DNA from: Octopus sinensis
Lineage: Eukaryota
Direction of reading: 5' to 3'
Length of the DNA: 64,000 nt
NCBI RefSeq assembly: GCF_006345805.1
Contig: NC_043009.1
Span: 17,794,001 to 17,858,000, forward strand
This document shows positions 23,061 to 61,195 of the stretch, in pieces (the first letter of the stretch is position 1; the number at the start of each line of letters is the position of its first letter). A model generated the notes under the pieces. That model was given only the letters and a program-made list of their open reading frames with translations. It was not told the DNA's origin and made no database searches. The translations under genes were made by a program, and so were the position numbers.

Positions 23061-23095
23061 GTTTTACGTTTCAAGCATAGCTCTTTGTTGGAAAC
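23061..23095 (-). ncRNA. Decayed minimal type I hammerhead at the 3' end of the Penelope-like element
   Basis: gttt-CCAACAA-agagc tat gctt-GAAA-cg-TA-aaac; stems I, II and minimal III present, core degraded. Confidence 0.4.
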
Positions 23096-23579
23096 AGGAA
23101 AAGCAGGCAAGTCCAAAGAGAAAGAATGAAGAATGAAGAAAACTAGCCAACAGTCCATGTGTGGTTACGTTTCTGAAGTAACTGGAGTAGGAGGAAGAGG
23201 AAGTGCTTTCTGGGACAAGAGAGTGTGAAGAAGATGGTCAGTGTGTGTTTGTGTGTGTGTGTGTGGTAGCATGTGTGTGCATATGGTGGTAACTGTGTGA
23301 GTGTGTGTGGTATTAACTGTGTTTTTGTGTGAGTGTGTGAGTGGGTGCATTGCCAAGGGTGTGGGTATTATGTGTGTGGGTGTGCATGTGTGTGCACGTG
23401 GGTGTGTGTGTACATGTGTGCATGCATGAGTGTGTGTGTGATGTGTGGCATAAGAATATAAAAAATAAAGACTAATACAAATAAATAATAAAAAATAAAT
23501 GAAAAAGATTATGTGAATAAATCAGTAATAGAAAAAAAATGTTTAAATCAGTAACAGAAATAAATAAAAAATAAATGTA

Positions 23580-25040
23580 AAGTTTATTGCAAAGATTGCA
23601 CCTGATGCAGTAAATGAGGCTTGAAGAAGTGCTGGAGGAGGACTGCATAATGGTTGGATCCAGGTGTCACTGGTGATGAAAGGACAGGTGTGGCGAGAAG
23701 GTCTGGAGCAAGGGAAGGATCCAGATTGGGTTGAAATGGAGGCAGGAGGGGACTATGGGCCAGTAGATTGCATAGGCTATGGGCACATTTGAAGGAGGGC
23801 AAGTGTGGGTTGGAGAACATAGGGAGGGTGGTGGGATATAGCTGAAGGTGTAGGGTGGAGGGGTGGAAAAGGAGGGAAAGGAGATGCAGTTGGGGTCAGT
23901 GTGAGTAAGGAGAGAAGGCAGTAGTGTGATTGATTTAACAAACAGGGGTAACAGTGGATGGGTATCCATGATGCAGGAACAAGAGGGCCAGGTATTGGGA
24001 CTGGGTCTTGAAATCCTGGCCTCAGCTGCATGGGCATCAGTGGCAGAGGAACTGGGAGGAAGAAAAGTTGAGGTAGAAGTGGGAGTCTGCAGGTTTAAAG
24101 AAGGCAGAGGTATGAGAGAGTGGGTGAAGGGATCAATGGAGAGAGAGATATTGAGGAAGTTTATGAAAGTATCGGAGATGGTAGAGATGAATTCAAGAGA
24201 AGGGTGGAAGTTAGAAACGAAAGAGATGAAATTGGAGAGCTGTTCATGGGAGAGAGAGGTAGTGCTAATACAGTCGTCTATATAGTGGCTGTATCGTTCT
24301 GGGGTCAGTCCGGAAAACTGAGAAGATTTTGGCCTCAACATAACCAACAAATAAGTTGGCAAAATTGGGGCCCATTCTTGTTCCCATAGTGACACCAGAG
24401 GTTTGCTGGTAAATCTGTCCTGTAGACTTAAAGCAGTTGAGGATGAGGACGAGTTCTACTAGGTGGAGAAGGGTAGAGGTGCTAGGTGGGGGTCGGGGTG
24501 ATGGTCGAGGAAGTATTGGAGGGTTAAGAGGCTGTCGTTGTGGGAGATCACAGTGTACAGGGATTTTATGTTCATGGTGAAAAAGAGGCATGAAGGGCCA
24601 GGAGTGAAGAAAGAATTGAAGAGGTGAAGGGTGTAATTGATGTCATGTATATGAGATGGGAAGGCAGCAACTAGAGGGAAAAGGATGAGGTCAAGATATT
24701 TGGAGATGAGTTCTGTGGAACAGAAACAATGTGGCAGCCTGGGTTGTCAGGTTTGTGTATTTTGGGAAGGAAATAGGTGATGGAGGTACAAGGTGTTTGG
24801 ACAATGAAGTTGGCATCAGTTTGGGCAGAAGACGAGACAAGGTCATGGATGGTGGAGGAAACGTTTCTGGTAGGAGGGGTGGGGTTGGAGGAAAGGAAGC
24901 AATAGAATATGGGGTTCCAAAGATGATGGAGTGCTTCCTCCTTGTACAGGCCACACCACCACTGCTCTACCTTTGTCTGCTGGCTTGATGACAATATTGT
25001 ATGGTGATGGAGGTTGTGAAGGGCAACCAACTCAGCCTGG
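23580..25040 (-). mobile_element. Decayed Penelope-like retroelement (RT plus start of GIY-YIG endonuclease)
   Basis: YFLPKIHKPDNPG, YQQTSGVTMGTRMGPNFANLFVGYVE, HYIDDC, NFHPSLEF, and SSLIYCIRCNLCNK at ~23585-23630; frameshifted. Confidence 0.85.
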
Positions 25041-25774
25041 GTGATAAGAATGACTTACACGTATATGCACACTCTGCCACACATCACAAAGTATATTGCA
25101 ATAAGTTGTCCACATCTGCATTTCCTGGTGGTGCACTCTACATAGTCACCAAAGACTCACCACGGATATTATACATCTATTGGCCTAGGACATTCAACAA
25201 AGAATATCCCAACTCCATTAAACAAGCTCTGTCCAGGGTTAGAAAGAGATTCCATGTCGGCTGCCTCTGATGAGTGCCAGGTTACATAATCAGATTGTTA
25301 CCTCACACTCTGTTGAATCTCTGGCATAAAGCTGATTGGTAAGATTGACTGTAATGGATATATAATACTGCACACCTTGGATAATATATATATATATATC
25401 TGTGTGTGTGGTGTTTCTTTGTGTCTGTGTTTGTACCCCATCACTGCTTCACAAATGGTGTTTGTGTATTGACATCCTCATAACTTAACTAACTTTGTGT
25501 TTCAGCAAAAGAGACTGATAAAACAAGAACCCCGCTTAAAATATTAAGTCCTGGTGTCAATTTGTGGCATGGATACAGTCTGATGACTGAAACAAATATA
25601 AAAAGATAATATATTCTTCCCCAGAGTATGTACTCAGGAAGAGAAGTAGACACCCATAATTCCTTCACAGGGTCTTTGAGATTAGAAGACCATGTGGACG
25701 GTATCCCCAAACCCAAGGCCTGGACCAAATACTTGTGATAAAGAGGATTCTACTTAGGGCATTAAAACTGCCAG

Positions 25775-25978
25775 ATGGTACATTATTTACATTATGTACA
25801 TTTGACGGATATTTGTCCTCATCTTCTTTGTTGTTAACACAACATTTTGGCTGATATACCCTCCAGCATTCATCAGGTGTCTTGGGGAAATTTTAAACCT
25901 GGGTTTTCATTCCTAAGGTATTTTTCAATGTTGTTGTTGTTGTTGTTGTTGTTGTTATTATTATTATTATTATTATTA

Positions 25979-26034
<56 letters not shown>

Positions 26035-26105
26035 TCACCGCCTGGAATCAAACTTGGAATCTTGGGGTTAGTAGCCCGCACTCTTAGCCACTATGCCATA
26101 TGCCT
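25775..26105 (-). mobile_element. tRNA-headed SINE with internal (AAT)n and a hammerhead-like motif
   Basis: Head tggcatagtggctaagagtgcgggctactaaccccaagattccaagtttgattccagg (A and B boxes), (AAT)n/(AAC)n, then acac-CTGATGA-atgctg..cagcc-AAAA-tg-TT-gtgt at 25837-25880. Confidence 0.6.
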
Positions 26106-26150
26106 GTGTCTATCACCCAAGTCGGCCACTGAAGAATTTGAACTCAGTGT

Positions 26151-26186
<36 letters not shown>

Positions 26187-26621
26187 ATGTGTGTGTGAGA
26201 GAGAGAAAGCTTGTGCATATGTTTGTATGCTTGTTAATATACATGTATACATATATTTATTTTCATATATTTACATTATATGGAAATATGGAAGTGACTA
26301 ATACAATGACATTTGTATTATGAAGCCATGCTGGCAGACAAAGATGGAACAGTATTTGCGACACTAGCTCTGGTTCCACATCAGTAACTGCTTTCCATAA
26401 TTTTAATATACTATCAGGTTAGTTTCCAGACAAACACTTCAGGTGTAACATTTGTAAAAAGCTAATTGTGAATTGTTTATGTAGCTGAAGAGAGCCTGAA
26501 GATCAAAACACTGGACTCTCCAGTAATTTACCAGTTTTCTTAAAGTGGTAAAAGTTTTGTTTCTTAATGACAACATGTAATAAGAAATAGAACAATACTA
26601 TAGAGATAACTTATACATATG

Positions 26622-26674
<53 letters not shown>

Positions 26675-26782
26675 ATAATATATATATATATATATATATA
26701 TTATATTATATATATGTAGGTCCGGGTTGATCCGGGGTTAACCACAGTAAGTAAGTACTCAATACATAGCAGAGTAAAATAA

Positions 26783-27210
26783 TTTATTATATAGAAGGAG
26801 CTTCTACAGGACTAGTACTGTTTCATTCAAGAGAAATCTTCAGGAAGCTATTTAACAAGAATTGTATTAGCATTTTACATTTAGGCAGGTTTAGAGGAGT
26901 GGTGGTGGGGGACTTTTTTGGGGGTAGGCATAGCGCAAAATATCATACTTGGGGGAGTGGTCAAGGAGTCGTGGTAAGTTAGATGAAGGAATAGATAAAT
27001 AAAAAAAAAAAATAAAAAATAAATAAAGAATAAAAAATAAAAAATAAAAAATAAAAAATAAAAAATAAAAAAAAAAAATAAAAAAATATAAAAAAAATAT
27101 AAAAAAAATAAAGAAATAAAATGTGTGCACATACATACATAAACACATATACATACACACACACATACTACACATGTGTGCTATACATACCTACACATAC
27201 ACACATACAC

Positions 27211-27279
<69 letters not shown>

Positions 27280-27702
27280 ATCAATACAGGCCCATTCCCT
27301 AATTTTAATTTTATTATCTTCATTTATTACTTTTGTTATCTTTGATCGCTAGGGCTAAGGATCTGGCGATGGCAGCATGTCCAATCGTCTGTCTACTAGA
27401 AGGCAAGTACTCGTTCCCGCACGCACACTCATTTGCACGTACATACACCCATTCGTACACTCATACACATACACGTACGCACGCGTTATATCATACATAC
27501 AAACATCTACATACGTTCACGTATATACACATACGTACTCGTACTACAGATTCATGTCTACACTTTAGGAGGCTAGTCTATATATATACACCAGTAAATA
27601 TACATATATATATTATAATATATACATATATATATATATATACACATATACACTACACACACACACAACACATATATATACTCCTACATACAGATACATA
27701 CC

Positions 27703-27733
<31 letters not shown>

Positions 27734-28669
27734 TGTGTATATATATGTATGGGTATGTATCTGTATGTAGGAGTATTATATGTGGTGTGTGGTGTATGTG
27801 TATAGTGTTATATATATATATATTATATAATATATATATATATGTATATTTAGGTGTTTATATATAGAGACTAGCCTCCTAAAGTGTAGACATGAATCTG
27901 TAGGTACGAGTACGTATGTGTATATACGTGAACGTATGTAGATGTTGTATGTATGAAATAAACGCGTGCGTACGTGTATGTGTATGAGTGTACGAATGGG
28001 GTATGTACGTGCAAATGAGTGTGCGTGCGGGAACGAGTACTTGCCTTCTAGTAGACAGACGATTGGACATGCTGCCATCGCCAGGATCCTTAGCCCTAGC
28101 GATCAAAGATAACAAAAGTATAAATGAAGATAATAAAATTAAAATTAGGAATGGCCTGTATTGATTGTGTATATATATATATATAGATATATATATATAT
28201 TATATATATATATAATATATATAATATATCTAATATATATATTATACGTATGTATGTGTAGTGTGTAGTGTAGGTTGTATAGGCACACATTGTACGTATG
28301 TGTGTGTGTATGTATATGTGTTTATGTATGTATGTCACACATTTTATTCTTTATTTTTTTTTATATTTTTTTTATATTTTTTTATTTTTTTTTATTTTTT
28401 ATTTTTTATTTTTTATTTTTTATTTTTTATTTTTTATTCTTTATTTATTTTTTATTTTTTTTTTTTATTTATCTATTCCTCATCTAACTTACCACTGACT
28501 CCTTGACCACTCCCCCAAGTATGATATTTTGCGCTATGCCTACCCCCAAAAAAGTCCCCCACCACCACTCCTTTAAACCTGCCTAAAGTATAAATGCTAA
28601 TACAATTCTTGTTAAATAGCTTCCTGAAGATTTCTCTTGAATGAAACAGTACTAGGTCTATATAATAAA
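26783..28669. repeat. ~1.9-kb near-perfect palindrome (foldback), centre in a TA run at ~27725
   Basis: 26812-27710 is the reverse complement of ~27740-28655 with scattered indels; flanked by (TA)n on both sides. Confidence 0.9.
26799..26849 (-). ncRNA. Type I hammerhead ribozyme (intact core, GUA site)
   Basis: agcttc-CTGAAGA-t ttc tctt gaa t-GAAA-cag tactagtc ctg-TA-gaagct: 6-bp stem I, 3-bp stem II, quasi-palindromic stem III. Confidence 0.75.
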
Positions 28670-28799
28670 AAAAAAAAATATATATATATAATATTATATA
28701 ATATATATATATATATATATATATTGTTTAATGAGCAGAGTATATATTTTATGAGCTACAGAACAGTATAATATATATATGTATACATGAATGTATATA

Positions 28800-28930
28800 T
28801 ACTGGAGTAAGCACATAAATGTGAAACAAGGTGGAAAAAAGAGTACTCAAATACTCAAATATGCTTTATTAAAAGCAGTAGAAATATCACAAAAACTGTT
28901 ACTCAGAGTAACATGTTCCTGTTCGTTGAG
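28800..28930 (-). mobile_element. Family A hammerhead-tail element, decayed ribozyme
   Basis: actggagtaagcacataaatgtgaaacaaggtggaaaaaagagtactcaaata...gctttattaaaagcag...aactgttactcagagt; same as 46750, 56654, 56834, 57215, 61077. Confidence 0.65.
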
Positions 28931-31138
28931 AGCAATGTGAGGTGGAGTGTTTTGCTCAAGAACACAATGCATCACCCAATCCAGGAACGGAAACCGTGAT
29001 CTCACAATCATGAGTGCAACAGCATAACGACTAGGCTATGTATCCTCACACACATACACAATGTAAATATCTATGTGTGCATGTATGCACATATCACTCT
29101 CATCCTCTTCATCATTTTTTCCATGCTTGCATCGATTGAACGGAGTATTTTGAGGGAAGAATTTCTCTGCCTAGATGCCCTTCCTGTCACCATCTGTCAC
29201 CTGGATCCAAGCAGGTTATTATTTCTCCATGGCAGGAGATTTTTTTTGCTGAATATTACAAACAAAGACAACATTTGTATGATAATGACACTCATATACA
29301 ATTATCACATGATGTCAAGAAAAGGAGGCACAAGTACACACACACACACACCCATGCATTTATATATTTATATCTAAGTATAAAAAACAACATTCAGCAA
29401 CAATAATAATTTATCAGCATCAAAGGTTGTAGGATTTGCTCATATTGAAGTTTGGTAAGCTGAAAAAAACCCACAGTTAGTATCTAGGATTGCTATGAAT
29501 GTGAATTGAAGGAATGTGAACAGGTAACATCCAGGCTACATATGTACTCAGCTAACTACTCATCAGGCCAAAGAAACCATAGATATATAAAGGTTACACA
29601 CATACACATATACACATATATACGCACACATGTTTGTGTGTGTCAGTGGGTACAATAAGCTTCTTTCAGTAACTGTCTACTAGATCCACTTGCTAAGTTT
29701 TGGTTGACCCAGGGCCATAGTAGACTGACTCAAGGACTGAATGACAACGGTTGAACCTGAAGCCATGTGATTGGGAAGTAGATTGCTTAGCTCTACAACA
29801 ATGTTTTCACCTATAAAGTCACTGTGCAAATATTGTTTGCTTGTACAGATAACCTGGGCAAGCAATCCTAGAACTGTCCTGGAATGTCTTGAAATAATAA
29901 TGTCTTGCAGTATTAAAGGTATGAATGCTATCAGGAAAAGGTGTTCACATTAGAAAAGGTCAGAATGATATGGAAAGAAGACGGAGTGAGGATGGAGCTC
30001 AGAGACTGGGCTTTATGGCTGAGGTGTGAAAGGATGGTAAAAAGTTGCAGTGTATTTATACAGCACAGCCAAATAACTTTTGCCAGCATGGAGAAATAAT
30101 TGATTATGATTATGATGAATATATGTATTTGTGTGTATATGTATGTGTAGTAATTAGAATTATAATACCATATCTAAAGGTTTTGTCTCTGGATGACTTA
30201 GTAGATGAAAAGGAATAATGAATATTGGTTTGAAATTTTAATCATGTAATTTGTGAATTAGTATATCTCATTCTCTTTAGTACTTTTCAGATCATGTTTC
30301 ATGGCAGTAACTTTTGTCAATACAGCAAGAATGAACTTATGATTTTGAATTGCATGAGTGGGTGTACAGCTGACACTCTCAAAAGAGTAAACTTCAGCAT
30401 ATTTATACTGAAGGCAATGATTGAAGCAAACCTGTCAAATATAAACTCCAGCCCTTCATGAAAGCAAACAGAACCAATATACAATATGCATAGAAAATTT
30501 ACCCCTTCTTGTGTCCTAAAAACTGCACTCAAAAGTAGAAGGATAAATTATTTCTCCTTAAATGAAACTACCTCAGAAACAACAATGATTTTTTACAAAT
30601 ATCTGGTATAAAGAAAGGAGTGTGTGATTTCATTTGTTTTAAAACATTTTCTTTCAAGAAATATATGGAGCCATATACACAGAATAACAGAACCAGGAAA
30701 AGAAGAAATCATTTGCTTCAACCCACTCTATGACTTCACTGTAGTGTCCAACAGAGTTAGAAATTTTGTTACATTACTTAGGAAGCATTTTCCTATCAAA
30801 CACAAGTATTACAAACTGTACTATAAAAGTAATATAAAAGTTAGCTACAGCTGTATAGAAAAATACTGTTAGATTGAAGCAATAAAATTTAAGTACTGAG
30901 ATCAGGACAAATTTAAATAAACCACCAGAACACAGCTGCAGTAACACAATAAGCTGGTTGTCATAATAAAAGTCAGAGTTTTAGATGCTGGGGTTGAAGT
31001 CTGCTCTAGCATCTCATCAGAACCAGATTATATTTATAGATAAATTCCTCTATTTTACATAATATCAAGGTCTCATTCATTCTATTGTTGTCATATTATT
31101 ATTATTGATATACATATATATTATATATATAAAAGGTA

Positions 31139-31552
31139 GAAGAGTGGCTGTGTGGTAAGTAGCTTGCTTACCAACCACATGGTTCTGGGTTCAGTCCCAC
31201 TGCATGGCACCTTGGGCAAGTGTCTTCTACTATAGCCTCGGACCAACCAAAGCCTTGTGAGTGGATTTGGTAGACGGAAAATGAAAGAATCCTGTCGTAT
31301 ACATGTATATGTATATATATATGTGTGTGTGTGTTTGTTTGTCTGTGTTTGTCCCCTCCAATATCCCTTGACAACCGACGTTGGTGTGTTTACATCCCCG
31401 TAAATTAGTGGTTCAGCAAAAGAGACCAATAGAATAAGTATTAGGCTTACAAAGAATAAGTCCTGGGATCGATTTGCTCAACTAAAAGGCAGTGCTCCAG
31501 TATGGCCACAGTCAAATGACTGAAACAAGTAAAAGAGTAAAAAAGTAAAGAA
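31139..31552 (+). mobile_element. Full-length tRNA-derived SINE (family 1)
   Basis: A box tggctgtgtggtaag, B box gggttcagtccc, internal TA/TG microsatellite, tail tgactgaaacaagtaaaagagtaaa. Confidence 0.85.
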
Positions 31553-31609
31553 TATATATATGTGTGTGTGTGTGTGTGCATGTATGTATGTATGTATATA
31601 TATATAGAC

Positions 31610-31975
31610 ATGCAGTGTCTGTGCAAGACCCTGCCTCAGTAAAGCTGGACTCAAGAGTCACCTTCGTAGTCATAAAGCGAGACAGATGAGTGACAACCTG
31701 GCCACTGGTGGTGGTGTTACACACCATACTAATCATATCTGTCAGGCATGTGGAAGAGAGTGTAATTTGGCAGGAGGACTTAAACGACATGCAAAGGTAC
31801 ATGAAGCCCAGTTACAACTACAACCGGCTATTGCTGGTAAAGGTTTTAGCTGCCGATTCTGTACAAGACATTGTAGATCTTTAGCTGGGCTAAAAAGTCA
31901 CATTCGATCACAGCACCAATAACAGTTAAGCTTTGTGCAATGGCCATACTAGATAACGAGGGGGCAGCCATCATA
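31610..31975 (+). mobile_element. RTE-like LINE 3' end with two C2H2-type fingers and (TA)n tail
   Basis: ORF 31686-31922: HICQACGRECNLAGGLKRHAKVH and FSCRFCTRHCRSLAGLKSHIRSQH; ends gggggcagccatca(ta)n. Confidence 0.65.
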
Positions 31976-32316
31976 TATATATATGTATGCATGTATGTAC
32001 TGACAAAGATTTGGTCAGCCCATTCTTATAATAGACGTTAGTTGCCCAGGGTACTGCATAGTGGAACTGGACCCAAGAGAAAAGCTTCTTAGCCACACAA
32101 CCATACATATAGATAGATAGTTATATGTATTGAGAGATATAGCTCTATAGATATATGTATGTGGCTTTATATATATATATATATATATATGTTTGTATAT
32201 TTGTATGTATATTTGCGCGTATATACTTGTGTATATATATGTACATACATTTGTATATATATACCCATACATATACAAACTTACATGTGCATGTTTATGT
32301 ACATATGTATACAATG

Positions 32317-32355
<39 letters not shown>

Positions 32356-32560
32356 ACACATGCGCATGCACACACACACACTCACAACACAACACAACTA
32401 TACATGAATATCATTACAATCAGATGAGCCTTCAGTTACACTAATACTTGGAAATGTACATAATGCAAGCAGTACATAGACAGACAGACAGACACATACA
32501 CATATATATTCTGCAGGTAATTAATATTTTACTGAGTTCTTGTATTGACCAGTTGTTTAA

Positions 32561-32681
32561 GTAGTAGTAGTAGTGGTGGTGGTGGTGGTGGTGGTGGTAG
32601 TAGCAGTAGTAATAGTAGTAGTAGTAGTAGTGGTAGTGGTGGTGGTGGTGGTTGTAGTAGTAGTAGTAGTGGTGGTGGCGA

Positions 32682-32716
<35 letters not shown>

Positions 32717-32717
32717 A

Positions 32718-32754
<37 letters not shown>

Positions 32755-46749: not shown

Positions 46750-46784
46750 CACTTTATTTTAAGCAGCAGAAAATTCAACAAAGT

Positions 46785-46822
46785 CTGTTACTCTGAGTTT
46801 CTCGTTGCCGTTCATCAGACAG
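46785..46822 (-). ncRNA. Minimal type I hammerhead ribozyme (family A; intact core, GUA site)
   Basis: ctgt-CTGATGA-a cg gcaa cg a-GAAA-ctc a gag-TA-acag; palindromic stem III; AATAAA downstream on the same strand (~46753-46758). Confidence 0.7.
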
Positions 46823-46838
46823 TTTTTGCTATATATAT

Positions 46839-46872
<34 letters not shown>

Positions 46873-47063
46873 TACATTTTATAAAGGGCTTAGTAAAATA
46901 AATTACTTTGCCACATACTGAACTCATTAGAAATAGCAGCCAAAAAAATTTTTTTAGCCGAATTCTAATACTTAAAGAAAATTTCTCTCAGATAGTGCTT
47001 ACTCAGAATAGCCCACGAAGGTATGGGGGTAAAAACATTAAAAAATCACAAATGCAAAGGTTA

Positions 47064-47125
47064 TTTGAGAACGTACGTTTCTAGATCAGCCAAATACAAT
47101 TCGACATTTCTTTCGTCAGCCCAAA
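47064..47125 (-). ncRNA. Type I hammerhead ribozyme (intact core, GUU site)
   Basis: tttggg-CTGACGA-aaga aat gtcgaat tgt atttggc tga tcta-GAAA-cgtacg-TT-ctcaaa; perfect palindrome ACGTACGT as stem III. Confidence 0.7.
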
Positions 47126-47443
47126 ATTCCTTAATTCGGATTTGTAAACACTGAAAGTAGGAGCATACCCTTTTGGCGACTTTTCACCTCCGAAGATCCG
47201 TTCAGACTACCAGTGCCAACAAATTCAAAATATGCAAGCGAAGAATTTCTGCCCTCCCCTTTCCACCCACGTGGTCTAATCTAGCAAACACCATAATTTT
47301 ATCGGTGAAAACCGAAGCATTAAACAGAGAGAAATGAATTATAATTTCAACAATTGAGGGTAAAATTAATTAATTATTAATCAATTTCACCAAGTATTCA
47401 GTATGTAAAGGGACCATTTAAGGCGAATTCAAAATATTTTTCA

Positions 47444-47569: not shown

Positions 47570-48213
47570 AATAGACTGATAAAAAAAAACAGACTGAAAA
47601 TAATACTGTGTTGTTATAATTGATCAAAAATCTTTGAAGGCTGGGGTAAGGTGATACTTCAATGATTGAAACAAGTAAAAAATTAAAGGAATAAAAAATA
47701 TGAATCGGAATCACATTTACCCATTATTAGCTAGAATATTCATAAATGAATTGGCAGAGTTGCTCAGACAATTTACTCAAAGGTGCCATGGTTCAAATCT
47801 ATAGCTGGTGGTGCTTTAGAGTATTCTGCATTCTCCATTGTTGCAATTCACCTATGAATTGGAAATAGGCAGGAGATCAATACGGCAATATTCACCATTA
47901 GACCAGAATTTGCAAACTGTCTTGTTATTGGATCCAGCCTGTGGCTCTTATATATACATATGATAGATAACATATACAATCCATTCAGTATGCAGCTCAT
48001 TATGAAAAAGCTTCCATTTGTCAATATCTTCAATTGCTCCAATGTCGTGTGAAACAAAGGAATTGAAAATTCTGTTGATATCTCATATTGACTTTTGGTG
48101 CAAAATGCATTCTTGGTTATATCAGCAAAATCCCATGTGAGAGTTTCTCCCATAGTATCTACCACAGTATAGTTTGTTTTAACAGAATATTCCCATTTGA
48201 GTGGAGATAAATA

Positions 48214-48758
48214 CAGGGTTATTCAAACAGAAAGAGCAGATTTCAAATTTATTTTTAAAACAAACGCTAAGAGACACAAACACATTCTACATATTTCTTG
48301 ATAGGGGAAGGTTTAAAGTTTATTTTAAGGTAGTATGCACTCAACATGAGCACCATGTGTTGCTTGACAAACAGAAACAGTAGTCTATTTCTTGCCACAC
48401 TCGAAACAACCGATCCGTGGATAGTGTAACAAGCTGGATCTTTATTGAATTGGTGGCAAAATTCACATTGCACTTGCACAATCGATTTTCATTTCTCAAA
48501 CTGCAGCACACAAAAAGACTTTTTTTGTGGCGTCACTATTTTCTAAGGGAAATTATACAACTTTAAATAAAATGAAGAAAATGAAGCAGTAAAACAAAAT
48601 TAAAATATTATTTTATTAAAGGCTTAATTCTGTTGATCATATTCAGCTACAAACTTTAAACCTTCCCCTATCAAGAAATATGTAGAATGAGTTTGCGTCT
48701 CTTACCGTTTGTTTTAAAAATAAATTTGAAATTTGCTCTTTCTTTTGGAATAACCTCG
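48214..48758 (-). mobile_element. Internally deleted Tc1/mariner element (MITE-like) with ~105-bp TIRs
   Basis: TA|cagggttattc...gaataacctcg|TA; TIRs 48214-48320 and 48651-48758; internal KSFCVLQFEK*KSIVQVQCEFCHQFNKDP resembles the N-terminal HTH (DUF4817-like) of these transposases. Confidence 0.75.
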
Positions 48759-49070
48759 TATTACCTGTCAGTATTAATACTGTCTCAGTCACTAATATAT
48801 ATCAGTTGATATCAAGTTGGTCACATTTGATTAGTAAAGGAGTTTGGTGAAGAACCCTTTCTGTGATAAGAGAAGGAAGATTAACTAAGCTTGCCTCAGG
48901 GCAATCTTGATTGTATGAATATGTACGACAATTTGAAAGAAATGTGGATCATTTATTCTATGCAAGTAGCTTGGACCTTTCTTGTCCTTTTTATGCACTT
49001 TGCAATATATGTTTCCTCTACCATTCTCCAGTCACAGCTCCATAGTTCATGTTTATATATACATATTTAA

Positions 49071-49247
49071 AGGACACAATGCATATCATTAAGTGCCACT
49101 AATAATTTCATGTTGAGAAATATCCCAAACATATTCTTCAGGCACAAACCATAAGTAATCATCCCTGTTTGTGCCTGAAGAATATGTTTGAGATATTTCT
49201 CAACATATGAAACTGTTAGTGACACTTAAAGACATGTATTGTGTCCT
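49071..49247. repeat. ~180-bp hairpin, each arm carrying a hammerhead-like motif
   Basis: 49071-49149 is the reverse complement of 49167-49247; right arm gtgc-CTGAAGA-atatgtttgaga tatt tctcaacatat-GAAA-ctgttag-TG-acac. Confidence 0.75.
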
Positions 49248-51180: not shown

Positions 51181-51869
51181 CGGTAAAGTTAATAGATGTT
51201 CCCATTGTTTGTGAAGATATTCTGGAATAATTTTTAATATGGGGCCTCTACCTTTTCTAAATTAAGGCTTCATCAATAACGCTGATATATTGGGTAAGAC
51301 ATTTGGCTTCTATTTCCAATAGATAAAGTAATTGCATAAAGCTGGAGAGAGAAACCTGTTAAAAAGGTTCCTCAGGGATGAACTACAAATATTCCACAAA
51401 TGCATAAGAACCATTGAAAAACATAGGGAGGCTTTAATTTTACAAATTCATATTTATGTAAATTCTATGAAATTACTATTTCAATGTTATTGGTTTATAT
51501 AGGTTATTGATTTGTATGGATATTCGAGTAGTTTCAAATTGCAGTGTGATAGAGAGTTCACCACCCACTGGCATGATAGAACTCCACTTATATTCTGAAA
51601 GTGTGGAAATGATTCCCTACCATTGGCTTACAGAAAGATTTATTAAATAAGAAGTACTTCACCTAACTGTAAAGAACTTCTAGAAAGTTAACTTATGAGA
51701 GGCTGACATCCTATCCAGTGTTAGTTTTATTTCTCACCTAATTGTATGTGACTTTGAGTGAAACTGGAGTGAAATTATAGTGAAACTAGGGTGAAACACA
51801 TAAAACTGGAGTGAAAAATGGAGTGCAACTGATTGTCTCTACAGTGCATATATAATAGTGTAAATCTCA

Positions 51870-52462
51870 GTATATGCTGACGACCTTGCTTTAATTGCTG
51901 CTGAGTCACTATCAGAACTAGAGGAGAAGTTTCAAGTGTGGAAACAAGGATTAGAATCGAAGGGACTTAGAGTCAACCTAGCTAAAACCAAAGTCCTAAT
52001 AAGTAGGAAGGCAGGCAAACTACAAATCCTTTCAGGTAGATGGCCCTGCTCGATCTGTAGTAGAGGCGTAGGTAGAAACTCTATAAGATGTACCCAGTGT
52101 AAGCTATGGACACATAAGAGGTGCAGCAATATCAAAGGAAGGCTAACTGGGAAGATAGTTTTTGTATGTGGCAGATGCTTGGGAGCAAAAAACACTGAAA
52201 ATGTGCAGAGAACAACTTCCATCACATTTCAGGGAGGAAAACTAGAAGTAGTTGATAGCTTCCGTTACCTAGGTGACCAACTCAGTAGTGGGGGAGGGTG
52301 CACTGAAAGTGTAGCTGCTAGAATAAGAATAGCTTGGGTAAGGTTCAGAGAGCTCTTACCTCTACTGGTGACAAAGGGCCTCTCGCTCAGAGTAAAAGGT
52401 AGACAATATGATGCATATGTACAAACAGCCATGCTACATGGCAGTGAAACATGGGCTTGTGA
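51870..52462 (+). mobile_element. RTE-clade LINE RT fragment with PHD-like finger
   Basis: YADDLAL, GLRVNLAKTKV, CSIC...CTQCKLWTHKRC...CGRC, LEVVDSFRYLG, AMLHGSETW. Confidence 0.9.
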
Positions 52463-52939
52463 CTGCTGTTTGTGTATATATGTATGTGTATATGTGTGTA
52501 TGATTGTATTATATATGCATAGATGCATGAAGCTGTTTGCTTCAAAATTGTGTCCCAGGTTTGATCCTATGGTGCAGCATCTTAGATATGTGTCTTTCAC
52601 AATAGTCTTAAGTCTACCAAAGCCTTCTAAGTGAAATTGGGTCCATGGAAACAGTGTAAAAGCCTGCCTGTTTGACTGCCCGTGCAGTTTAAAAACCCAG
52701 CCTTGTCATATTGTGTCTCACTGATTTATATATATTAAGTGTACATGTGTCTATGGACGCATCAATAGTTATGAGAGGCAGAAAGACAAAGGGGCCTGAG
52801 ATGTCTGAAAGGTAGAGGCACAAGACCTGCTAGCTCCAAGGAACAAAGGCCATTATTGTAATGATAGGAATGACAGAGAGAGGAGACAGCACACATGTGC
52901 ACTAGAGACCGAATTAGTTCTACTTAGTTAAGTGACCCT

Positions 52940-53880
52940 TCTATGGATGTGATTCAGGATGTTGGTGGGTCTAGCATCAGCACCATCCTCAATGTAGAGA
53001 GTAATCCACTGCAGGCCTTCAGTTGAGCCTTGTAGATTATCAGCAACTACTGGGGGCTGAAATGCTTTCTGAACCTGAAGAGAAGGCCCAGTCTTTGGGA
53101 TATGGTCCTAGCTATGTTGAGGATGTACTTTTGCTTGTGATAATAAGACACAGTGTTTGAAGTAACTATGAGGGTTCTAGCTGAGTATCACACGTTTAGT
53201 GGCAATTTTTCTCTTGATATGAGTAGTGTTTGATTTTGATATTGTTAAAAGAAATATGGTCAGAATGGTTTCACTGAAGGATTCTCACAAGGTCTCTGTA
53301 AATGGAATCAATACAGGTTCAGCTTGTCTAGGCTGGTTGTGAACAAAGCAAGGCTGGAGAAAGTTATGGAGGAATGAAGGGTCATATCATTTGCATAAGG
53401 TTAAGTGTTGTTGGATGTGACAGTAAGGTCATTGATCGATAAAAGGGAGAGAGATGAGTGCAAATCTAACTCAGGAGAATTCTAGAGTTGATTAAAAATG
53501 AGGCAAGATGGAGCCCATAGGCAAAAAAGTTTGATTGGAGATTCACATGCCAGGTGGAGTTGAAAGCTTTGCAGATATCTCAGGTAACATATTGCTTTCA
53601 CTGAACTTCTTTAAAGCGAGAGCCAACAGGTGAGTGACATAATAAAGCAGGCTTTGAAGCAGATTTGTCTTTCTGAAAGCCAGACTGGGGGTCGCTGAAG
53701 GGAGAGACAAAAATTCAAGGTACCGGAGAATATTATTGTTAATAGTTGGCTCCTGCACATTAGAGATGTTAAAGATGGGGGTAATAGTATAATAGTTGGC
53801 CAGGTCAAAGGTGTTGCCTTTCTTTGGAACAGAGCATATTGAAGCATGCTTCAAAGTGTCATGATGCGTCCCTGTAGAGA
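52940..53880 (-). mobile_element. Decayed CR1/L2/Jockey-group LINE reverse transcriptase
   Basis: KHASICSVPKKGNTFDLANY, QSGFQK, SINDLTVTSNNT*PYANDMTL (YADD-like); frameshifted. Confidence 0.65.
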
Positions 53881-54395
53881 GTGTGAGATTAAAGAGTTTG
53901 GTGAATGTATGTGCTTTGACTAATCTATATGCATGTAAAACATGTGTGTCTGTATCTAGAAACTGGGACTGTATAAGCCTTAAAGGTGAAAGAGCTCAGT
54001 GAGAAGGGTGTGACAGATGTGTTTCTCACAGAATGGTATACAGCATGATATGATGTAATGATAGAAGTAGTGGTAAATTGGTTGAGAATTACTGAATTGT
54101 TGGGTTAGGCCTAATTTGAAAGGAAGCTTAGGTGGTTGTGACTTGTAAAGGAGGTGTTTCTGACCTGGAGGGAGAGAAAGAGAGGGATAGAATGAGAGAG
54201 AGAGGAGGGGAAAGAAAGAAAAAGGGAGAGAGATGGTAAATGAATGCAACATAAAATATTAGCAATAGCAAAAGAGAAAGTGCATATATATATGATATAT
54301 GTATGTATATATATATGTCCGTGTGTGTATATATATACACACATATATGTATATGTATGTATGTATAATAAAATGATGTGTTTGTGTGAGTAATT

Positions 54396-54430
<35 letters not shown>

Positions 54431-55656
54431 CACGCACGCACACACACATATTTACACATATATATATATAGACATACACATGCACATAAAAATATATATG
54501 CACATACATATATACACACATAAATATATATAATATATAAAAAAGATATACTTACATATATATGTATATATATATATATATAATAATGGTATAATATATG
54601 TACATGTGCAAATCTATATACACATGTACATATATAAATATAAATATATGATGATATATATATATATATATATATATGTATAAAAGAGCAAGAGAAAAGA
54701 GGGTGAGAGAGGATGTGCAAAGTTATTGCTTTATGCCCAGTTAAGTTTATTTCTTATCTAGTTGTCTCCACAGTTGGATTGTAGATAAAAGTGAATTTTA
54801 ACACGTCCACTGCTTGTGGCAGAGAATTGGTATATTGACTGGAAATAATTATCCTGGCTAATGGCAGGCTGATTCCTTTATTTAGTGCTTCAATAGCTGA
54901 CAGTTGTATCATGAAGTGTGACTAGTTAGCTTGAAGATGTGATTAGACATACATACTTGCATACATACATATTACATACATATATACATACATACATACA
55001 TACGTACATACATACATATATACATATGTACATACATATATGCACAAACACACTCCCATGTGTATATGGATAGATATACAACATATAAATGTGTGTGTAT
55101 ATATATATATGTATACACATACATATATACATACATACATATATATATATATGTATTTATATATAAATGCATATAAAGAAGTATGTATATATATATATCT
55201 ATGTATGTAAATAATGTGTGTATGTACCCCTACACTCACCCCTTACCCCCATTACTTTGTTTCTGCCGCCATACCCTCTACTTTGCCATCCACCCCTATT
55301 TTGGCTCTTCTTTAGTCATCAGTCTCTCTACTGCTGTTCATCTTCTCCTCCTGTGCCTTAAGTAAAAAGATACATCATTAAGTAGTCCTACTACATGGTG
55401 AAGGCAATTTTTATCAATGTTGATGCCATGATAAGTGGGGACAAGACTGAGTCAAGAGGACATTGTCGTTTTGTTGAAGACATCACCACCACTCTAGCAC
55501 TAGGGACATGACAAAATACATCCCAGTGCAAAGTGGTTGGTTATGCAAAGGGCATTGAGCCATTGAGTATAAGTCTTCTGACCTTATCTAGAATGGCAGT
55601 AAATCTAAGTAGCGGCTGAGACAATTGTTACTCTCTCTCTCTCTCTTTCTCTCTCA

Positions 55657-55691
<35 letters not shown>

Positions 55692-55810
55692 ACTCTCTCT
55701 CACTCTGTAAATGTGTGTATATATATATAAATACATACATACATATACATATATATATATACAAACATACATATATATATATATACATATATACATACAA
55801 ACATGCATAT

Positions 55811-55851
<41 letters not shown>

Positions 55852-56456
55852 TGTCTATTTGGTAAGACGCTTGATTCTCAACCACACAATTCTGGGTTCA
55901 GTCTGGCACCTTGTGAGTGGGTCTGGTAGAAGAAACTGAAAGAAGCCCGTCGTGTATATATGTGTGTGTGCAAGTGTGTGTGTGCATGTGTGTGTGTGTG
56001 TGCAAGTGTGTGTGTGTGTATGTGTGTGTGTATACATCCATTGCAGTGGGAATGAGTTTTGAGTAACCATTAACCTAATTTATATTAAGGTACGGATGAC
56101 TTAAGTTTACTTTTAACCTCCCCATTCTTAAAAACACCAAGTAGATAGCTAACTCACTTTCTGATCATGAGTGCACCAAACCTCACGTGTGCGTATGCTC
56201 ACATTTTTGTGGATGCTTGTATGAGTGAGTGTACTCGTGCCATGCAGCTTGTCCGAGGGCATTTATTCATCCATATTTGTTAACAGTTATTTTTAATACT
56301 CGCTGGATTGCGTGTTCATTTGTCATTTTTACCATCTGTGATTGTGTCTTTGATTTTCTATATAAATGAAGATATTTCCTCCGTCTGGTTGCTTTTCTTT
56401 CTACAAAACAAGAAATTGCATTGCTTAACTGTTATTCTAACGAGTTGTATCTATTT

Positions 56457-56562
56457 ATCACCTGACGAGATACATCTGCACCACTAGGTGCTCCTGAACC
56501 AGCTGTTGAGTGTCCCACCCATGAGGAATCGATGCTAGGTGTGTTGAAGCAATTGCCATGAT
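56457..56562 (+). ncRNA. Variant or decayed type I hammerhead with long stem II
   Basis: atcac-CTGACGA-gatacatct...aggtgtgtt-GAAG-caattg-CC-atgat; palindromic GCAATTGC stem III with G-C in place of the A15.1-U16.1 pair. Confidence 0.4.
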
Positions 56563-56606
56563 TAATAGTAAATTCTCGTATGTTCCATCTTCCGTCTTTC
56601 ATTTGC

Positions 56607-56655
<49 letters not shown>

Positions 56656-56792
56656 TTTATTTAAAAGCAGCAGAAATATAACAAAAGCTGTTACTCGGAG
56701 TTTCACGTTCCATATTACTCTACCTCTGGTATTTGAGTACTTTTTTTTCCACCTTGTTTCACATTTATGTGTTTACTCCGGTATATATATAT

Positions 56793-56831
<39 letters not shown>

Positions 56832-56833
56832 TC

Positions 56834-57365
56834 TTTATAATTAAAGCTGCAAAAACATCACAAAGAACTACTAATCAGAGTTTCATGTTCCCATTCGTTG
56901 GGCAGTTGTGATCAAAAATGGGATAAAAATTGTGATTGTACGTATAATGTATATTTTGATATGTTTCAAATTCATGGATACACATTTGAAATTGATTGGA
57001 TGATTTCATTAACAGTAAAAGTCTTTCAGAAGTATGCAAGATAAGACAAGTAAGTATAAATTTTATTTTATATTTCATATTTCCTGTCCCATCTTGCATA
57101 CTTCTGAAAGACCATTAGTTAAAATCAACCAATCAAATTCAAATGTGAATCTGTCAATTTGATCCATATCAAAATATACATTATACAATCACAATTTATA
57201 TTCCATTTTTGGTCACAACTGCCTGACGAGCAGGAACATGAAACTCTGTGTAGCAGTTTTTTTGTGATGTTTTTGCAGTTTTAATAATAAAGCATATTGC
57301 TCTACCTCAAGTATTCGAGTACTATTTTTTCTGACCTTGTTTCCTTTATGTGCTTACTCGAGTGC
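56834..57365. mobile_element. Foldback family A element: diverged ~220-bp inverted arms plus a 3' tail
   Basis: 56836-57055 is the reverse complement of ~57078-57287; a hammerhead in each arm; the right arm continues through AATAAA into the family tail and (TA)n. Confidence 0.8.
57217..57258 (+). ncRNA. Minimal type I hammerhead (family A; core intact, stems II and III partly decayed)
   Basis: aactgc-CTGACGA-gcaggaacat-GAAA-ctctgtg-TA-gcagtt. Confidence 0.6.
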
Positions 57366-57375
57366 ATATATATAT

Positions 57376-57748
57376 TCTTTTATTTGTTTCATTCATTAAC
57401 TGCAGAGTCATGCTGGAGCACCGCCTTTAGTCAAACAAATTGACCCCAGAACTTTGTAAGCCTAGTACTTATTCTATCAGTCTCTTTTGCTGAACTGCTT
57501 AGTTATAGGGACATAAACACACTAACATCAGTTGTCAAGTGATGGTGAAGGGGCAAACCCAGACATGCAAACATATACACATATATACAACGGGTTTCTT
57601 TCGGTTTCTCTCCACAAAATCCACACACAAGGCTTTGGTGAGCCCAAGGCTACAGAGGAAGAGACTTGCCCAAGTTGCCACACAGTGGGACTGAACCCAG
57701 AACCATGTGGTTGGTAAACAAGCTACTTACCACACAGTCACTTCTGTG

Positions 57749-57750
<2 letters not shown>
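57376..57750 (-). mobile_element. SINE family 1
   Basis: Reverse complement of 31139-31552. Confidence 0.8.
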
Positions 57751-57787
<37 letters not shown>

Positions 57788-58306
57788 AAAAAATGAAGTT
57801 CGAAAATGCTGCTGTATTATACAATTTTTAATTTTTATATATACATTATAACATGTTTCAGTTCCTGAAATGAACTTTATCAAAAAGAGTTATATATAAA
57901 AAAAGACAGCTCATGCCGTCAAACACAAGAAATTCATTTATAATACACAACGGAGTCAGACATCTTAGAGTTCATGTATAGTTGATATATAGTTCATGTA
58001 TAGTTGATATATAGTTTGAAGTATATGTTCAAAGTGTTCGATGCAGTGGCCCACGGTGGCGATACGTATTTAATACAAAAAACAGATCAAAGTGGTGGAA
58101 AGCGGTCAATACAGAAGATTGATGTTTCCGAAAGAGCGAGGAATTCATTTTTACCGTAAGCAAATGTGATGACCCATGGTGGATGTTCGCTGGGTGGTTC
58201 TAATGAGTTTTTGTGAAGTGCTCGGTTTTATAATGCCTGTTAGGTGGTCAATCCAGCATAGCGTGACGTCATCAACGTTTTGACCAATCGTTTCGTTAGG
58301 TGGCTT

Positions 58307-58517
58307 TAGTCAAGTAGAATGGGACGTCATCATTATTTTGACCAATCGCTGCATTATAACTGCCTCTTGTTTGTTTCCTGTTTTGACCAGTCGCTTCGTT
58401 AGTCAAGTAGAACGGGACGTCATCATTATTTTGACCAATCGCTGCATTATAACTGCCTCTTGTTTGTTTCCTGTTTTGACCAGTCGCTTCGTTAGTCAAG
58501 CAGAACGGGACGTCATG
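58307..58517. repeat. 93-bp tandem repeat (~2.3 units) with CRE-like and CCAAT motifs
   Basis: gacgtcat at 58323, 58416 and 58509; gaccaatc in each full unit; degenerate units at 58264 and 58600. Confidence 0.85.
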
Positions 58518-58645
58518 CAGATTCTGCCCAATCACGACTTATAGCTACATTAGATCTGCCCCCTGTCTGTACTTGTTAGGTGACTATTCAAGCAGAAAAG
58601 GATGTCATCAATATTCTGACTAATGACTGTCCCCTGTTTGTATCC

Positions 58646-58703
<58 letters not shown>

Positions 58704-58927
58704 TACATACATATATATTCAAAAGTTTGTAAATGGTAACAGTGAAACCATGGTATGTAGCTTATCATCAAATTTTGTATCTTTTCATTTGTCTTGGTCA
58801 CTTTACATTCTGGCGTTTGCTGAAATTTCTTGAGAACACATTCATTTAGCATCTTCTTGTGGCATATTAGGAATCCACCTTGGTGGTTATTCCTCTTATA
58901 TATGTATGTATGATTATGTATATATAT

Positions 58928-58961
<34 letters not shown>

Positions 58962-59023
58962 CATATGTATGTATATATACGTATGTATGTATATATTTAC
59001 ATATATATACACACATATATATT

Positions 59024-59060
<37 letters not shown>

Positions 59061-59515
59061 ACACACACACACATATATATACATACATATATCTATGTGT
59101 CTGTTTGTCCACAACACTGCTTGATGACCAGTGTTGGTGCGGTTATATCCCCATAACTTAGCAGTACGGCAAAAGAAAGCAATAAAATTAGTACAAGGCT
59201 TTAAACAGTAAGAAAGGTTTGTGACTTTGACAAATACATTTTGTCTAAGCATCACTTCTTGGTGACAAACTGTTGTCCTTCTTAGCTCTCCATAAAATCT
59301 TAAACTTTAGAGATCATCATCATCATCATCATCATCATCATCGTTTAATGTCTGCTTTCCATGCTTTCCATGGGTTGGACGATCTGACTGAGGTCTGGTG
59401 AACCAGATGGCTGCACCTGGCTCCAATCTGATCTGGCAGAGTTTCTACAGCTGGATTTCCTTCCTAATGCCAACCACTCCGAAAGTGTAGTGGGTGCTTT
59501 TATGTGCCACCTAAG

Positions 59516-59746
59516 GCAGCGAGCTGGCAGAAACGTTAGCACGCCGGGCGAAATGCGTAAACGTATTTCGTCTGGCATTACGTTCTGAGTTCAAATTCCG
59601 CTGAAGTCGACTTTACCTTTCATCCTTTCGGGGTCGATAAATTAAGTACCAGTTATGCACTGGGGTCGATGTAATCGACTTAATCCGTTTGTCTGTCCTT
59701 GTTTGTCCTCTCTGTGTTTAGCCCCTTGTGGGTAGTAAAGAAATAG
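59516..59746 (+). mobile_element. SINE family 2 (young copy) nested in a minus-strand RTE 3' UTR (59335-60010)
   Basis: ggcagcgagctggcagaaacgttagc...gttctgagttcaaattcc...; RTE UTR repeats (ttttatgtgccacc) on both sides. Confidence 0.7.
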
Positions 59747-60049
59747 GTACTGGCAACGGCCACGCTCAAATGGTGCTTTTTATGTGTCACCTGCACTGGA
59801 GTCAGTCCAGTGGCACTGGCAACAACAATGACCTCGCTTGAATGTTTTTTCACATGCCATCAGCACAAGTGCTAGTAAGGCGACGCAGGTAATGATCACA
59901 CTCAAATGGTGTTTTTAATGTGCCACCAGCATGGGGGCCAGCTTGCTGCTCTGGCAATGATCACGCTCATATGGTACTCTTAGCACTCCACTAGCATAGA
60001 TGCCAGTCATCAAATTTGATTTCGATCTTTAATATTATTATTTCTGCTT

Positions 60050-60895
60050 AACGTTAATTTCAGGCATTAATCCCTTTTTATTTTTCACTGGTTTTTACCT
60101 CAGTACTTCTTTCTGCTGAATATTTTTGCATATAACTAACAGAGATAGATTCCTGTCATTGGGATCTATCATATAAGCTAAAATAAAATATAGATTTATT
60201 AAAAAAAAAATTTGAACTCCAAAGTTGATTTCTTCCGTTTGTGGCTTCACATATTTGACTCAAACTTTTTTTTACTGAACCAAGTTTCGAATTTTTTTGC
60301 TCGAAATATAGCTTACAGTGTGACCAAGCTAAATCCGTAAACATCATCTAATTTGGTTAAAAACTGAGTAAATGTTGATCTTAAGAATATTAGATGTTTT
60401 TTGAAAAGATTAACACTACAACACTCATCTTAATGAGTTCTATCATATGAGGTAAAAAGAAAAAATGTTAAAGTTAGATATAGTTTTCTTTTGAAATAAC
60501 AATAACCTCTGGAGTCAAAGTCGATTTCAGGCGTTAGTCTCCTTTTTTCTCACCGGTTTTTACCTCAGTACCTTTTTCACTACTGCATATAAGTAACATG
60601 GATAGATTTCACTTGTTGAGCTCTATCATGTAAGCTAAAATAAAATAAAGATTTCTTTAAAGAAAAATATTTGGACTCAAAATCAATTTCAGATGTTACT
60701 CTCCTGTTTTTGACTGCACATATTTTGCTGAAACCATTTTTCTACCAAAGCAATTTTCAAATTTTGTAGCTGAAATGGAGCTTAGGATGTGACCAATCTA
60801 AAAGTGTAAACATCATCTAATTTGGTTAAAAACTGAGTTAGTGACAAAGCTTGGAAGTGGTCGCAAGTGAGTAAATGTTGACCTTAAGAATATTA
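60050..60895. repeat. Diverged direct duplication, period ~470 bp
   Basis: atttcaggc..ggtttttacctcagtac..taagctaaaataaaata..gtaaacatcatctaatttggttaaaaactgagt at ~60057-60392 and ~60524-60895. Confidence 0.75.
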
Positions 60896-61041
60896 TTCAC
60901 ACACTGCTATATATACATATATATTTCAACTGATGTACACACAGACATCAGACACAGACACACACACACACACTCAAATATACATATATATATATGTTTT
61001 TACTCTGGTGTGCATATATATATATATAAATGCTTACTCTG

Positions 61042-61083
<42 letters not shown>

Positions 61084-61195
61084 CAGAGTAAGCATATAAA
61101 TGTGAAAAAAGGGGGGAAAATAGTACTCGAATACTGGAGGTAGAGTAATATGCTTTATTAATAAAATATATGTATATTTATATATATTTTATATA

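Follow-up and report, generated by a model that had tools for sequence, protein, structure and literature searches.

A stretch of 64,000 nucleotides of the Octopus sinensis genome (NCBI RefSeq assembly GCF_006345805.1, contig NC_043009.1, positions 17,794,001 to 17,858,000 of the forward strand), referred to here in its full length as the window, contains three foldbacks that carry type I hammerhead ribozyme motifs. These foldbacks are interpreted as 5'-truncated, head-to-head double insertions of the 3' ends of Penelope-like elements (PLEs) into (TA)n, likely generated by the priming of two cDNAs on one RNA; a probability of about 0.62 is assigned to this reading. An earlier note on the same DNA had located the foldbacks correctly, since self-alignment recovers them at 26812-28655 (93%), 56828-57297 (81%) and 49071-49247 (84%). 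Their common geometry was also described accurately: the left arm has its hammerhead on the minus strand and the right arm on the plus strand, with the 3' ends facing outward, and both larger foldbacks have (TA)n flanks. Several unrelated families had been proposed and five can be distinguished (A to E); Penelope-like machinery, type I hammerheads with a palindromic stem III and (TA)n are all involved, as had been suggested. What does not hold is the view of the foldbacks as a non-autonomous hairpin-retrozyme population: family A represents the 3' terminus of an autonomous element, and families B and D are probably ordinary termini of autonomous Penelope elements too.

The family A foldback comprises (i) a tail-bearing arm (26718-27733, minus strand), which corresponds to the last ~1 kb of the 3' untranslated region (UTR)/pseudo-long terminal repeat (pLTR) of an autonomous Hydra-type PLE; (ii) an inverted tail-less arm (27734-28669, plus strand), with its hammerhead at about 28618-28658; and (iii) the (TA)n target flanks, at 26612-26717 on the left and about 28670-28724 on the right. 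The tail, of ~64 nt (26718-26781, minus strand), is found on the first arm only; both of its ends are AT-rich and match the target, and in the tandem copy at locus L056 it continues into the start of the open reading frame (ORF). The hammerhead of the tail-bearing arm (26799-26849, minus strand) has a 6-bp stem I, a U.U followed by a 3-bp stem II, a 4-bp stem III and a GUA cleavage triplet, and is identical to the commonest form in the family. Its counterpart in the right arm is without a cleavage site, which was removed by a short deletion. The AATAAA reported downstream of the ribozyme is indeed present, at the point where the tail-less end joins (TA)n, but the element continues through it into the next ORF and, in consequence, it is only a candidate poly(A) signal.

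Genome searches, which cover the 2.72-Gb assembly, gave 2,060 first-look candidates for the family A end (26718-26990), and the best 40, those that were scored, are 97-100% identical. The 10-kb stretches upstream of the end reveal variable 5' truncation. A non-coding family A, suggested by the lack of a long ORF in 20 upstream stretches, was refuted by loci L030 and L035, where the window arm extends into frameshifted reverse transcriptase (RT)-endonuclease (EN) sequence; the earlier label "non-coding" thus fits the window copies and not the families, as A has a coding parent. The EN piece has 19,338 candidates, of which 150 were scored. In 16 loci picked for long frames, open frames of up to 652-675 codons contain DKT, YRDD, CxCx5C, CxxC and CxH, with VY..YIG at the C-terminus, and can be read by motif as a single ORF for RT and GIY-YIG. 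Beyond the stop codon, at a distance of 2.7-4.0 kb, 13 of these 16 loci have either the hammerhead end of family A or the segment upstream of it. At L056 the order is inverted copy, pLTR, ORF and 3' UTR, the layout of Fig. 2 of PMC8557442. Among 802 homologues (E<=1e-20), 76 were aligned, and DK[TS], RW[KR], CxCxnC, YxDD, CxxC and CxH are each present in 72-76 of them (DK[TS] in 75 and RW[KR] in 72). SDKTK is seen in L041, L042 and L056, and RWR at the N-terminus in L056. Taken together, these data show that family A marks the 3' terminus of a young, autonomous PLE whose RT-EN coding capacity is recognised from its motifs.

The motifs also indicate that family A likely belongs to the Hydra clade. 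According to PMC8557442, that clade has, like family A, a C-terminal EN, DKT, a CxCx5C linker and CxxC plus CxH with no CCHH; in family A the linker reads CNCPDKTTC, CDLC..SE and NK..CMH follow, and no CCHH was seen by eye in the EN. Insertion into (TA)n and a U.U at the base of stem II are likewise shared with the window families, and the clade's stem III forms actc-a-gagt and acta-t-tagt recur in families B and D. The same source lists Hydra-1_Obim, a Hydra family of Octopus bimaculoides inserted in (TA)n. The family A hammerhead, of which one form is found in 97 arm occurrences (partly overlapping loci), has the architecture of the File S2 entries, but it differs from the one listed for Hydra-1_oBim, and family A has RWR where the Hydra clade has RWK. 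A further difference concerns size: Hydra elements are described as generally <3 kb (PMC8557442), whereas the family A unit measures about 5.0-6 kb (5.0 kb from hammerhead to hammerhead at L056), because of a long, microsatellite-rich 3' UTR of 2.7-4.0 kb (8 loci). In three measured loci this 3' UTR is 3.2-3.3 kb long, with 67-70% alternating purine-pyrimidine sequence (11% in the window) and 20-27 (TA)n tracts. An inverted family C tail fragment lies within it at 11 of 16 loci (e.g., L035:6470-6680); its fixation there shows a nested insertion, into (TA)n belonging to family A itself, that preceded the spread of this family.

The anatomy of the foldbacks was counted in the 40 family A copies that best match the tail-bearing end. 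An inverted arm accompanies the tail-bearing one in 34 of these 40 copies (85%), and none of the 34 inverted arms has a tail. The outer end of the inverted arm falls at 203-216 of 273 in 33/34, the exception being the window copy with its internal deletion, and the flanks are (TA)n at 37/40 and 31/34 ends. Arms range from 140 to 4,600 bp and whole foldbacks from 489 to 9,286 bp, with different centres, whose positions are approximate inside microsatellite DNA. Arm lengths are bimodal: the unpaired centre is of <=40 nt in 15 of the 34 foldbacks, 4 are near-symmetric and 15 asymmetric. Fifteen near-perfect hairpins compare with a mean of 1.07 and a maximum of 6 in 20,000 permutations. In the 15 strongly asymmetric copies, the tail arm is longer in 10 and the tail-less arm in 5, in the latter by 1.8-4.5 kb.

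The two arms of a locus also share their alleles. They disagree at 0/113 polymorphic cells, versus 16.6% under random pairing (minimum 8.1% in 5,000 pairings); 22 private variants occur in both arms of one locus and 21 in one arm; and arm-to-arm substitution amounts to 22/11,989 (0.18%) versus 0.67% between loci. Gene conversion between arms would be weak at most: in the old family B, arms differ by 13.2% versus 15.1% between loci (16 pairs, p 0.04). This divergence comes close to that of unrelated copies, and the data neither require nor show strong ongoing conversion.

Two primings on one RNA would account for a single tail, for shared alleles, for symmetry in cases where both cDNAs run to the RNA end, and for asymmetry of either polarity otherwise. 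In this proposed mechanism, (i) the GIY-YIG domain would cut both strands of the self-complementary (TA)n; (ii) one 3' end would prime at the AT-rich end of the tail and the other at the AT-rich tail-less site; (iii) both cDNAs would halt at the same broken 5' end of the RNA, which would give a perfect hairpin, or one of them would fall off early, which would give an asymmetric copy; and (iv) each cDNA would copy the other to close the gap. The hairpin arises at insertion, separately for each copy, and is not what transposes; the hammerhead would be the ordinary pLTR ribozyme carried along, probably acting, if at all, in tandem precursor RNAs and not in the foldback. Biochemical work on an Anolis PLE bears on several of these steps: in vitro, the enzyme cuts and extends both strands at AT-rich DNA, RT starts at two sites flanking the tail, dimerisation is predicted, and insertion is independent of ribozyme cleavage (PMC11167929).

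The same counts bring in the most serious rival, a snap-back: the first cDNA, or an antisense template, would prime itself and be copied back, the second end would be cut to size by the EN at the AT-rich boundary of the tail, and asymmetry would stem from template jumps or from later one-sided deletion at the palindrome centre. Although judged improbable, this explanation agrees with the 15/34 near-perfect hairpins, with the 22 private variants common to both arms, and with locus L032, which turns at an internal quasi-palindrome. Self-priming has been proposed in PMC3846280, and EN-mediated resolution of the tail in PMC8557442. The five asymmetric copies with the longer tail-less arm speak against it, as each requires a second event, given that copying back a tail-less first strand cannot make a tail. 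Asymmetric copies are, moreover, not older than the others by arm divergence (5/5,022 vs 16/5,259 substitutions).

Several observations weigh against the interpretation preferred here. A snap-back followed by one-sided deletion fits the same counts, and the two-priming step itself is something that we infer; Arkhipova et al. favour a self-primed reaction on an antisense template (PMC3846280). In asymmetric copies the long arm is longer (median 3,011 bp vs 922 bp), which is what palindrome instability predicts, and assembly polishing could blur differences between arms. The 85% foldback figure pertains to best matches and is not genome-wide; an inverted arm lies within 1.5 kb at only 2/15 family D loci and 16/25 family B loci. 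Coding links of B and D are few (3/15 and 2/15 loci), and two of the B links are head-to-head neighbours. Finally, Pfam, PDB-sequence and profile searches with the PLE protein gave no matches, and RT and GIY-YIG were recognised from motifs by eye.

Fold-back chimeras are a known artefact of long reads, and the perfect hairpins could conceivably be products of sequencing or assembly. This is very improbable: the arms end at a fixed element boundary with unique flanks, hairpin arms of the old family B are about 13% diverged, and the same structure has been published in other animals. Least probable of all is the proposal of the earlier note, namely non-autonomous hairpin retrozymes in which the foldback is the unit, with double-stranded RNA (dsRNA) transcripts whose two ends are trimmed by ribozymes. 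The recurrence of the geometry across families, the absence of ORFs from the window copies and the existence of non-autonomous hammerhead families (C, C2 and C3) are in its favour. Against it, no two of the 34 foldbacks have a common centre or arm length, as would be expected of a transposing or replicating hairpin; it is already contradicted for family A by the coding parent; and most ribozymes of the window foldbacks are broken. Self-cleaving dsRNA ends are likewise unlikely, because a read-through transcript would hold one sense ribozyme, buried in the stem by pairing with its own complement, which is transcribed first.

A good deal of this picture has precedents in the literature. In Penelope elements of Adineta vaga (PMC3846280), as here, pLTRs are inverted head-to-head with palindromic junctions, the tail is optional on one inverted pLTR and long spacers precede the 3' pLTR (Pen1); mobilisation of pLTR-only copies in trans was also put forward. 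That work deals with few copies, does not quantify arm symmetry or allele sharing in its accessible text, and proposes a different mechanism. In Schistosoma, pairs of minimal hammerheads on opposite strands, with a spacing of about 100-700 bp, have been explained as truncated PLEs (PMC4209133); they belong to the Cercyon family, where G10.1-C11.1 is conserved, unlike in families A-D. An inverted copy with 5' truncation is also found in Penelope-13_HM, where both strands bear a hammerhead (PMC8557442). Thus, inverted truncated copies, the one-sided tail, (TA)n targeting, the hammerhead shapes and an octopus Hydra family have already been published (PMC8557442, PMC3846280, PMC4209133; see also the reviews PMC6765202 and PMC8969392), and inverted hammerhead pairs at truncated Penelope elements are, as such, of little novelty. 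What is new are the counts on foldbacks, single tail, hairpin symmetry and allele sharing, plus the atypical microsatellite-filled 3' UTR of family A. The openly searchable literature (Repbase, Dfam and subscription papers being outside the scope) yielded no arm-symmetry counts, no microsatellite-filled Hydra 3' UTR and no inverted arms on retrozyme arrays. The origin of the tandem and inverted structures of PLEs has been named an open question (PMC8557442), and a young family with 2,060 first-look candidates offers countable rules (one tail, shared alleles, half of the copies symmetric) by which insertion models can be separated.

Family C is, by its reading frames, the only truly non-coding family of the window, a tandem retrozyme represented by one ~565-bp unit (46880-47443, minus strand; hammerhead at 47064-47125). 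Elsewhere in the genome it forms head-to-tail ~565-bp repeats of up to at least 4-5 units, and the best-matching full units are 92-99% identical. The longest ATG frame, in a natural dimer, has 45 amino acids, and tblastn of PLE proteins against the family C loci L082-L096 gave no match. The idea of a non-autonomous hammerhead element therefore survives for the family of the 47064 motif, in tandem form and with no hairpin. Contigs of four runs cover the unit; such contigs cannot show transcription, ends or editing. A sister family, C2, is 84% identical to C and behaves alike, and a C3-type array (L255:1-8480) comprises no fewer than 16 hammerhead units, each of 542 bp, and terminates in a tail plus (TA)n. 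Stem covariation, sought among copies, was found in five related C-type motifs, a small set with one descriptor-picked member: 98% of cells pair and 6/12 pairs changed on both sides (0/500 shuffles).

An inverted arm is present in 6/11 C arrays and 9/17 C2 arrays, after removal of one spurious match. Exactly one tail was found in 14/14 informative inverted C and C2 arrays, which were not selected for the tail; this count excludes L084, whose arm is interrupted, and L196, where the match spans 27 bp. Metazoan non-LTR retrozymes (PMC7229834) resemble C, C2 and C3 in that their tandem units are non-coding and each contain a single type I hammerhead, and the C-type units, of 542-571 bp, fall within the 51-972 bp range of Li et al. 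(10.64898/2026.07.22.740005). Retrozymes have been proposed to depend on PLEs (PMC7229834; 10.64898/2026.07.22.740005), their PLE-driven mobility having been argued so far from co-occurrence and homology (10.64898/2026.07.22.740005); Li et al. also discuss local expansion by unequal crossover (same source). The PLE tail, 5' truncation, frequent inverted arm and (TA)n of the C arrays do not figure among the features described in the accessible text of these two papers. They may be taken as structural marks of whole-array insertion by PLE enzymes, and family C is likely mobilised in trans by the same enzymes. Retrozyme arrays with such insertion marks would lend direct structural support to PLE-driven mobility.

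Family B is represented in the window by (i) a 3' end with tail and decayed hammerhead (28767-28930, minus strand); (ii) a mini foldback in (TA)n, with a short inverted arm joined to a tail-only arm (56655-56781); (iii) a foldback (56828-57365) whose arms are 81% alike, with both hammerheads decayed and the tail, at about 57298-57365, in the right arm only; and (iv) a tail fragment (61024-61166, minus strand) that includes a small palindrome around (TA)n. The tails of A (26718-26781) and B (57298-57365) both contain a TACTC...GAGTA hairpin in unrelated surroundings, possibly a protein-binding or RT start stem-loop. A subfamily, B2, contributes a short tail-less end with the 46785 hammerhead (46750-46830, minus strand). 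That this motif might be a decayed B copy was ruled out by identical motifs in both arms at L126 and L223, and it is therefore a subfamily state. Family D has a short foldback (49071-49247) with both hammerheads decayed. Its stem III had been given as ACATGT, when it is actually ACTA-T-TAGT; the cleavage position is occupied by G in the two window copies.

Families B and D are older and heavily truncated. Family B continues 5' into A-like microsatellite DNA, and its ends have Hydra-like coding remnants as neighbours in 3/15 distinct long loci: L159 has its remnant on the same strand (37.5%, E 5e-20), and those of L164 (E 9e-30) and L167, which has 68% DNA identity to L164, are head-to-head. 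Family D is preceded, on the same strand, by an EN remnant in 2/15 loci (L175/L107 and L174/L104), 82% mutually alike; L110 was left out, its EN remnant belonging to a neighbouring element. B and D are thus likely older Hydra-type families, and the coding links are supportive and not conclusive. Family E (22960-25054, minus strand) is a broken PLE-like element of another type, with RT motifs recognised by eye, and it is not a foldback. It has YIDD, a C-rich EN motif and a decayed hammerhead at 23061, and the region gave no Pfam match; its hammerhead type (bulged A, G-C stem II base, CG stem III) recurs at many sampled loci.

With regard to the hammerheads themselves, three of the four said to be intact stood up. 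A strict descriptor, in which a base pair is required at 10.1-11.1, recovered 0/4 of them, because none combines a clean 10.1-11.1 pair with intact stems; it gave 1 other match, a number reached in 13/100 shuffles. A relaxed descriptor, composed only after these motifs had been seen, is passed by 26799, 46785 and 47064, and the excess over shuffled sequence holds in these terms (3 vs a mean of 0.07 in local shuffles, 0/300 reaching 3). The fourth, 57217, fails and is decayed, with stems II and III broken. At core positions 4-5, 50 family B copies have CG (19), TG (14), CA (10) or other dinucleotides (7), resembling other CpG sites and unlike true TG controls (47/50, 42/50). Because of this CpG-like variation, the source of the 57217 family probably had C4, and the "intact" U would be a deamination of a decaying CpG. 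The change U4C is said to reduce hammerhead activity yet to function in a viroid (PMC3088659). Decayed copies are seen at 23061, 28620, 28900, 49100, 49175, 56690, 56870 and 57217.

In 600 kb of unselected genome (60 x 10-kb stretches), the relaxed descriptor found 34 motifs, nearly all with a palindromic stem III, 16 inside one tandem array and 18 elsewhere; hence, the hammerhead density of the window is typical for this genome. An element-selected, partly overlapping set of loci (L001-L196, 1.15 Mb) has 77 distinct hammerhead-like sequences in roughly 20 families, several with a C4 core. An Rfam scan gave no hammerhead model among the 150 listed of 200 matches, the listed ones being microsatellite-driven microRNA matches. 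Folding energies of 7 window motifs are no better than those of shuffles, except for 49168 (z -2.15), and 26799 is the sole one of the 7 whose minimum free energy structure has the three hammerhead stems. The idea that U.U or A.A at the stem II base defines a new ribozyme variant was rejected, since File S2 of PMC8557442 has U.U in many Hydra elements.

The foldbacks are also of interest as sources of dsRNA. Octopus is reported to have high near-perfect dsRNA and hyper-editing, with repeats unannotated, and lizard Penelope to be heavily edited (PMC5625713). An octopus repeat annotation describes recently active Penelope families, and the word ribozyme does not occur in its accessible text (PMC13282606). 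The same 600 kb of unselected genome contains 47 local inverted repeats. Of these, 13 are hairpins with zero gap; by eye, about 7 of the 13 show the (TA)n and one-sided-extension signature, and 2 of the 13 have passing hammerheads. The other 34 are pairs with a spacer, most of which look SINE-like. A dominant role of PLE foldbacks in local dsRNA potential found no support, as only 2/47 inverted repeats have a descriptor-passing hammerhead and 34/47 are spaced pairs. They are a candidate dsRNA source that is real but not dominant, a minority of all local inverted repeats. Further, unrelated (TA)n-flanked foldback families were noticed at L235:3102-3885, with a hammerhead on each arm, and at L247:1283-2140, L201:417-662 and L228:7918-8288, with none passing the descriptor.

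A broader picture can be drawn, and it is a doubtful one: a double priming unseen in other retrotransposons, in which one enzyme dimer would nick (TA)n on both strands and copy one RNA twice, starting at the two sites that flank the tail, so that a palindrome is left behind; the same machinery inserting retrozyme arrays; family A seeding its own targets; and foldbacks forming a large share of perfect hairpins and a candidate source of dsRNA and hyper-editing. If it is true, the 3 kb of its own target microsatellite that family A carries would seed new targets.

The window is rich in repeats, and no host gene was identified in it. Other elements include (i) a weak remnant of another Hydra-like RT (30249-30851, plus strand; 25% to the family A protein, E 7e-4); (ii) an element resembling a miniature inverted-repeat transposable element (48210-48762), with 112-bp terminal inverted repeats at 93%; (iii) broken Pif1-type helicase frames (61200-63800, plus strand; Pfam PF21530, E 1e-11), which we take to be Helitron-like; (iv) RT fragments of long interspersed nuclear elements with a PHD-like finger (51864-52634, plus strand, and 3690-4380); and (v) an inverted pair (12054-12283 and 31760-31989), 91% alike, formed by a zinc-finger-like 3' fragment adjoining microsatellites.

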